Virus record (IMG/VR): IMGVR_UViG_2657244940_000009
Coordinates: 1-8,998 of that record
DNA: 8,998 nucleotides
Origin: a virus
Taxonomy: Duplodnaviria > Heunggongvirae > Uroviricota > Caudoviricetes
Strand: one strand, 5' to 3'
The position numbers were made by a program, and so were the translations under genes. Below the pieces are notes generated by a model, which saw only the letters and a program-made list of their open reading frames with translations, did not search any database and had not been told where the DNA came from. Within the stretch, counting starts at the first letter, position 1. Each line of letters opens with the position of its first letter. This document shows positions 7,246 to 7,638 of this stretch, piece by piece.

Positions 7246-7638
7246 TCAGTAGCGATGCAGTGAAGGCGGCAACTCTTTGCTCTTAAGCCTTACCCATGCG
7301 GAAAGATTCGTTGGTCCATCTGGCTCATTAATATCAACATCTCGTGTGTGATTGATTAAAACGTCTCTCGCCATTCCAATAACATACGAGAACTCATGAC
7401 CGTAGTTGTAGCACCTGTCAGAATAGTTCGATTGAATTTGCTTTAGCGCCGGATACAGTTCGCGGAATAATGCCTGTGAACGGTTAGCATAATCCCATAG
7501 CCATACAAGGCTGTTTGCTTCTTTTGCGGAAAGTCCGTTGAGCTTCTTCTCTTGTTTGCCAGTATTTTTCTCGCACTGGCTGAAATAGCAGTCTTCCAGT
7601 TTTTCGAACACTTCCCACGCCTGATCAGTTTCGAGCAT
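7246..7638 (-). CDS. Hypothetical protein, 130 aa, no recognised domain
   Basis: Track ORF with ATG start; no Shine-Dalgarno seen; upstream frame closes 17 codons before the ATG; lies between ogt and the tR2-like terminator (ren-equivalent position). Confidence 0.5.

Follow-up and report, generated by a model that had tools for sequence, protein, structure and literature searches.

A 130-codon reading frame at the edge of a lambdoid prophage remnant is most probably a 5'-truncated ant pseudogene

Introduction

Ant of Salmonella phage P22 is a complete protein of 300 aa in which a P22_AR_N module at the N-terminus is followed by a P22_AR_C module, and its gene lies in the immI region under Arc/Mnt/sar control. 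Ant proteins act by binding CI/C2-type repressors and inactivating them. PMC3121763, citing Susskind and Botstein (1975), describes this for P22 Ant not only with the C2 repressor but with those of phages L, lambda and 21 as well. A related gene has been studied in the Stx phage phi24B, where ant precedes the qut site and the last 104 residues of its product are 82% identical to P22 Ant (Fogg et al. 2011, PMC3064807). Deletion of the phi24B gene leaves superinfection unaffected and reduces late-promoter activity after norfloxacin induction to ~27-56% of wild type, with complementation largely restoring it (PMC3064807). Lambdoid and Stx prophages of E. coli carry a further version in which an ORF6N domain takes the N-terminal position; in intact relatives its place is the nin region, with ninE on one side and the KilAC antirepressor gene/ninG on the other. 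In the light of the P22 and phi24B literature, the E. coli gene, which we consider below as the parent of the fragment described here, is best understood as an accessory antirepressor that speeds derepression after induction.

The window analysed here is the whole of an 8,998-bp draft contig (CDRA01000216.1, assembly GCA_000947375.1) taken in reverse orientation, and it is bounded on both sides by repeats, one being IS1 and the other a lambdoid lysis region. On the minus strand the order is ogt, an ORF of 130 aa, a Rha/KilAC antirepressor gene, ninG, a Ser/Thr phosphatase gene, Q, three tRNAs, a TerB-family gene, a SASA-family esterase gene and a holin gene. The window is therefore the right half of a lambdoid prophage, running from the nin region to the lysis genes and butted onto chromosomal ogt. 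An original prediction regarded the 130-aa ORF as an orphan accessory gene, with a role in defence or anti-defence as its leading reading and a 3' fragment of a larger disrupted gene as its fallback. We instead put the probability that the ORF is a 5'-truncated ant pseudogene, left by an illegitimate deletion or rearrangement, at about 85%.

The locus compares with the described systems as follows. It shares P22_AR_C with P22 Ant but has no N-terminal domain, and its parent belongs to the nin region. By the description given in the paper, phi24B Ant has the same C-terminal module and a nin/Q-proximal position upstream of qut, but is complete and expressed whereas the window copy is truncated (PMC3064807). 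The likeness to the ORF6N-P22_AR_C Ant proteins of E. coli lambdoid and Stx prophages extends to 94-96% protein identity over the 130 residues, the same position relative to ninE and KilAC/ninG, and a terminator in common; those genes are, however, full length, with ORF6N and a good Shine-Dalgarno sequence, whereas the copy in the window is fused to chromosomal DNA.

Results

The predicted 130-aa minus-strand ORF was confirmed with its ATG-to-stop frame in place (Table 1). The esterase gene in this window itself contains antisense ORFs of 132-161 aa, so the length of the 130-aa ORF is not by itself beyond chance, and it is the homology of the ORF that identifies it as real coding sequence. Two plus-strand ORFs overlapping the region (7128-7286 and 7552-7737) are regarded as chance, as is a plus-strand terminator-like site at 7497-7514; the scan gave three such sites against 1.8 expected.

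Table 1. Coordinates of the ORF, the junction and the neighbouring features in the window
Feature	Position	Strand	Basis or remark
130-aa ORF, most probably the 3' remnant of ant	7246..7638	-	ATG-to-stop; PF10548, phrog_377, P22 Ant identity
Whole kept 3' fragment of ant	7246..7661	-	137 codons + stop
ogt, methylated-DNA-protein-cysteine methyltransferase; chromosomal, flanks the junction	7741..8256	-	
Rha/KilAC-type phage antirepressor gene, intact; next gene downstream of the ant fragment	6449..7177	-	
Prophage/chromosome breakpoint	7659..7661	.	megablast ends + three-way alignment
Intrinsic terminator directly downstream of the ant fragment	7208..7229	-	terminator scan; 9-bp stem, 5 GC pairs, T-run
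Candidate ogt terminator, weak; chromosomal hairpin in the conserved ogt-fnr spacer	~7671..7694	-	8-bp stem ACCCUUAA/UUAAGGGU + UUUUC

The ORF had been thought to match no family, a view that fails against profile and sequence searches. Residues 31-102 match Pfam P22_AR_C (PF10548; E 7.1e-27, 93.8 bits against a cut-off of 22.4) over positions 2-73 of the 73 in the profile. The ORF also matches the PHROG family phrog_377, "anti-repressor Ant" (E 1e-49), over profile positions 86-213 of 213, which means that the family profile is present as its C-terminal 60% only. Residues 26-130 align with residues 196-300 of P22 Ant, the last 105 of that protein, at 89% identity (E 6e-72). Matches were found by tblastn in 233 phage records, including P22, epsilon34, CUS-3, Min27, Stx2 II and many Stx1a/Stx2a-converting phages, and in those records that are annotated the gene is mostly named Ant or antirepressor. 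The genes that cover the matching DNA in complete E. coli genomes are annotated as "phage antirepressor Ant" or "P22AR C-terminal domain-containing protein". Judged by these sequence matches, the ORF is a member of an already known, large and named family, the P22-type Ant, rather than an orphan or a new gene. An NCBIfam scan of the ORF gave no match, a PDB sequence search with a full-length relative returned chance-level matches only (E of at least 0.05) and thus no sequence relative of solved structure, and an AlphaFold2 model of the ORF from single-sequence input was too poor for fold comparison (mean pLDDT 44.2, pTM 0.31).

How much of the gene is left can be seen from two full-length relatives, WP_000211426.1 (244 aa, locus L001) and WP_053879780.1 (224 aa, locus L005), both of which have an N-terminal ORF6N domain (residues 12-95 or 12-115) together with P22_AR_C. 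From GAARHAKM to the C-terminus the window sequence is 94% identical to the former and 85% identical to the latter. The 130-aa ORF corresponds to residues 115-244 of the 244-aa protein, and its ATG, at 7638, is the internal Met115 of that protein. Seven in-frame phage codons (GAARHAK) precede this ATG with no start codon among them, and upstream of these the frame enters chromosomal DNA and then meets a stop, with no alternative start. The remnant reads as an ORF only because the internal Met115 follows the first in-frame stop of the chromosomal sequence. Pfam detected no N-terminal domain in the 130-aa ORF, and a tblastn search with the N-terminal 87-107 residues detected no ORF6N-coding sequence elsewhere in the window (E > 2). 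The DNA of the kept fragment is 99.8% identical to the same allele in three further contigs (L008, L009 and L010), with 100% identity at the protein level, and 95-96% identical to L001.

Set beside what typifies the Ant family, the window copy carries the P22_AR_C domain and has the regulatory or accessory location expected in a temperate phage (nin region, ninE-ninG), with the upstream half of that synteny deleted. It has no N-terminal module of the KilA-N/Bro-N/ORF6N/P22_AR_N class in the same polypeptide, and it has neither a start of its own with a ribosome-binding site nor a length of 224-300 aa. The fallback reading of the original prediction, a 3' fragment of a larger disrupted gene, was thus the correct one, given the start at the internal Met115 and the loss of the ORF6N half. 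A replication gene had also been raised as the possible source of such a fragment, but the parent is an antirepressor gene: the Pfam and PHROGs matches of the 130-aa ORF are to Ant families only, with no O/P-type replication protein among them. Replication genes are absent from the window and lie far upstream in intact relatives.

The closest intact prophage, in NZ_CP042892.1 (L005), is 98% identical to the window over positions 13-7661. Its gene order is ninE, an ORF6N pseudogene, full-length ant, the same terminator, the KilAC ant, ninG, the phosphatase gene, Q and the tRNAs. The original prediction had likened the position of the ORF to that of lambda ren, upstream of tR2, and this analogy proves to be wrong. 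Intact relatives carry ren as a gene of its own beside P, ~2.7-2.9 kb upstream of ant, with DUF7301, lar, ninB, a methyltransferase gene and ninE in between. The P22 tR2-type terminator is annotated at ninA, upstream of ninB, whereas the terminator that follows the ORF is downstream of ninE, between two antirepressor genes, and is an internal nin-region terminator rather than the equivalent of tR2. The ORF itself shows no homology to Ren and does not lie between P and ninB.

These comparisons bear on the possibility that the ORF is a genuine orphan gene with a ren-like accessory function in defence or anti-defence. The location in an accessory region of a prophage speaks for this, as otherwise does only the fact that no family had been recognised in the original prediction. 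Clear membership of the Ant family, shared with so many phage records, speaks against it, as do the placing of ren as a separate gene further upstream, the start of the ORF inside its parent gene and a scan of the ORF against the defence proteins of PADLOC-DB, in which 0 families matched at E <= 0.01. What had been the leading reading is left unsupported, being already refuted by the homology, and we consider it barely credible.

The same intact prophage has a second ORF6N gene, C-terminally truncated, just upstream of its full-length ant (L005 14175-14486), and this gene and window positions 7615-7660 have a 46-nt linker-coding segment in common. This conserved linker has the look of a joint at which these modular genes recombine or form mosaics.

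The boundary between prophage and chromosome is sharp. When positions 7150-7800 were compared by megablast with 5,426 complete E. coli genomes, the phage-type matches all ended at 7659-7661, and in a megablast of 7600-8998 the chromosomal matches all began at 7660, which upholds the predicted placing of the ORF at the edge of the prophage remnant. A three-way comparison of the window with the normal E. coli ogt-fnr spacer (L002) and with the same ant allele in L008-L010 puts the join inside ant codon 107, the window copy beginning at codon 107-108. On the chromosomal side the join falls 81 bp past the ogt stop codon and 113 bp short of the fnr start codon. The microhomology between the partners is 2 nt only (GA, minus strand). 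Of the 194-bp ogt-fnr spacer, the 81 bp nearest to ogt are kept (window 7660-7740 against L002 2888-3081), and prophage DNA stands on the contig in place of the fnr-side 113 bp and of fnr itself. The missing 113 bp presumably include the promoter region of fnr, and if the junction is real then this strain has lost fnr or carries it elsewhere.

Site-specific integration was considered as the origin of the junction and rejected. The break on the phage side falls within a coding sequence, no record in the phage collection searched carries a piece of the fnr-ogt spacer, and the closest intact prophage is integrated at thrW/proA rather than at ogt; the junction is therefore not an attachment site. 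A search of the literature for the fnr-ogt spacer as a phage attachment site returned nothing relevant.

The junction is also rare. It is absent from the 5,426 complete E. coli genomes, none of which covers at least 80% of positions 7150-7800, whilst a 32-mer across it is absent from the GTDB species-representative genomes and a 25-mer across it from the JGI metagenome contigs. The fnr-ogt spacer is a single-copy sequence in E. coli; of 5,403 genomes matching it, 5,329 have it intact. The exact 130-aa protein is on record only on this contig. The junction is private to one assembly, and this fits a recent, strain-specific deletion.

That the junction is known from a single draft contig also counts against a real deletion, and the strain might instead carry a full-length ant and an intact fnr-ogt spacer, the contig ends having been misjoined during assembly. 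Several observations are in line with such a chimera: the contig is a draft with repeat-bounded ends, neither the junction nor the exact protein has been seen elsewhere in the data described above, and the break adjoins the linker segment of ORF6N genes, a mosaic or recombination-prone stretch of the kind at which assembled contigs tend to end. However, misjoins usually need a shared repeat, and junctions with microhomology only are typical of genuine illegitimate deletions. Since the sequence shared by the two partners here is just 2 nt, and the spacer occurs only once in E. coli, we consider misassembly unlikely. In either case, real deletion or misassembly, the ORF is a piece of ant.

The three contigs with the same allele have the same downstream genes as the window, but their ant copies break at other positions, with unrelated sequence before them, and are not joined to ogt. 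It is the ORF6N half of the gene that is interrupted in each (L008 1-240, L009 1-104, L010 1-170), by sequence that we take, by eye, to be IS3-family ends. These are independent disruptions of the same ant gene.

Turning to signals for expression, the original prediction described the ORF as flanked by terminators, and this is accurate. The terminator on the downstream side (read as 7229..7208) is strong, at -15.1 kcal/mol with z = -3.66 against shuffles, and it is native phage sequence, since the 32-mer at this site is identical in the intact prophage (L005 13184-13215). On the ogt side a hairpin is present and is identical in E. coli L002, but it is weak, with a tail of only 4 U, and was not picked up by the terminator scan (7694..7671). 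The predicted lack of a Shine-Dalgarno sequence was borne out: the duplex energy with the anti-Shine-Dalgarno sequence over the 20 nt upstream of the ATG is +1.1 kcal/mol, which is weaker than for 96% of random 20-mers from the window, compared with -5.4 to -12.3 kcal/mol for ogt, ninG, Q, the phosphatase gene and full-length ant genes (-12.3 and -6.3 for the last). Full-length ant genes have proper ribosome-binding sites, such as AAAGGAGG in L005. A search of both strands of 6900-8400 gave no sigma-70-like promoter.

With no promoter, no Shine-Dalgarno sequence and no N-terminal domain, the fragment is most likely untranslated or non-functional, a silent pseudogene. Against this, the frame is intact, with none of the decay by which disuse could be proved; a recent event would, however, leave the same picture. 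Read-through from ogt could conceivably reach the fragment, given the short U-tract of the ogt hairpin and the intact frame, and an A-rich stretch before the ATG could allow weak initiation that is independent of a Shine-Dalgarno sequence.

If both took place, the fragment might have been exapted as a stand-alone P22_AR_C protein, transcribed by read-through from ogt and translated from Met115, acting in trans on the repressors of co-resident lambdoid prophages or as a dominant negative on full-length Ant. The retention of the entire P22_AR_C domain in an open frame, and the weakness of the upstream hairpin, would be compatible with this, as would the action of P22 Ant on several heterologous repressors that is described in PMC3121763. 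The fragment has, however, no Shine-Dalgarno sequence and no promoter-like site, and the event is unique to one contig, which gives no sign of selection for a free P22_AR_C protein. The other copies of this ant allele are disrupted by what appear by eye to be IS elements, suggesting that the gene is dispensable in resident prophages. We regard exaptation as very unlikely.

Discussion

The preferred reading is that of a 5'-truncated ant pseudogene, and the events that would have produced it can be outlined. The ORF represents the 3' 57% of a lambdoid ant gene whose product, with ORF6N and P22_AR_C, has 224-244 aa. An illegitimate deletion or rearrangement would have joined ant codon 107 to the ogt-fnr spacer by way of the 2-nt microhomology, and in doing so would have removed the ORF6N domain, the true start with its Shine-Dalgarno sequence, and all of the early genes upstream, from ninE to the immunity region and int. 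The homology, the domain loss, the exact breakpoint, the missing Shine-Dalgarno sequence and the synteny are observed, whereas a deletion in the living bacterium and a lack of expression of the remnant are inferred. A more ambitious proposal, in which the antirepressor fragment has been domesticated under the control of a host gene, with read-through from ogt and an internal Met start, and modulates the repressors of other lambdoid prophages or full-length Ant, seems to us highly improbable.

As judged from the intact relative, the lost upstream part would comprise the ORF6N pseudogene, ninE, the methyltransferase gene, ninB, lar, DUF7301, ren, P, O, cII, cro, cI and the left arm through int. 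The prophage remnant (window 1-7659) keeps Q, the tRNAs and the lysis genes, and on this contig has lost N, cI/cro, pL/pR, O/P and int. With the early genes and their promoters gone, Q and the lysis genes cannot be driven from early promoters of their own, and the late genes could be expressed only by read-through or with Q supplied in trans by another prophage.

The finding fixes the exact boundary of the prophage remnant (7659/7660) and otherwise carries little general biological weight. It does call for some caution in annotation, as pipelines will label the fragment a "P22AR C-terminal domain-containing protein" despite its being, on the reading favoured here, a 5'-truncated pseudogene.

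A number of other features of the window were recorded during this analysis. Within the prophage remnant, tRNA genes lie downstream of Q on the minus strand (4375-4605), where Rfam reports three and ARAGORN two (Gly-tcc and Asn-gtt); the middle Rfam tRNA (4453-4525) corresponds to a tRNA-Thr annotated in the intact relative. The sRNA STnc100 was identified by Rfam at 3327-3536 on the minus strand (144 bits against a gathering score of 47), with the DUF3927/TerB genes on one side and the SASA esterase gene on the other.

On the chromosomal side, Rfam places the sRNA McaS/IsrA at 8603-8698 on the minus strand (112.8 bits), where it adjoins a LysR-family pseudogene fragment that is probably abgR. 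Some E. coli have the AbgT transporter gene next to ogt; this contig lacks it, as do E. coli strains such as Combat2C1. The contig is closed by an IS1 end at 8756-8998 (InsA coding sequence ~8811-8996), and homology to most E. coli chromosomes ends at 8755. The related strain SCU-176 has an IS1 ~430 bp further on, inside an AraC-family gene.
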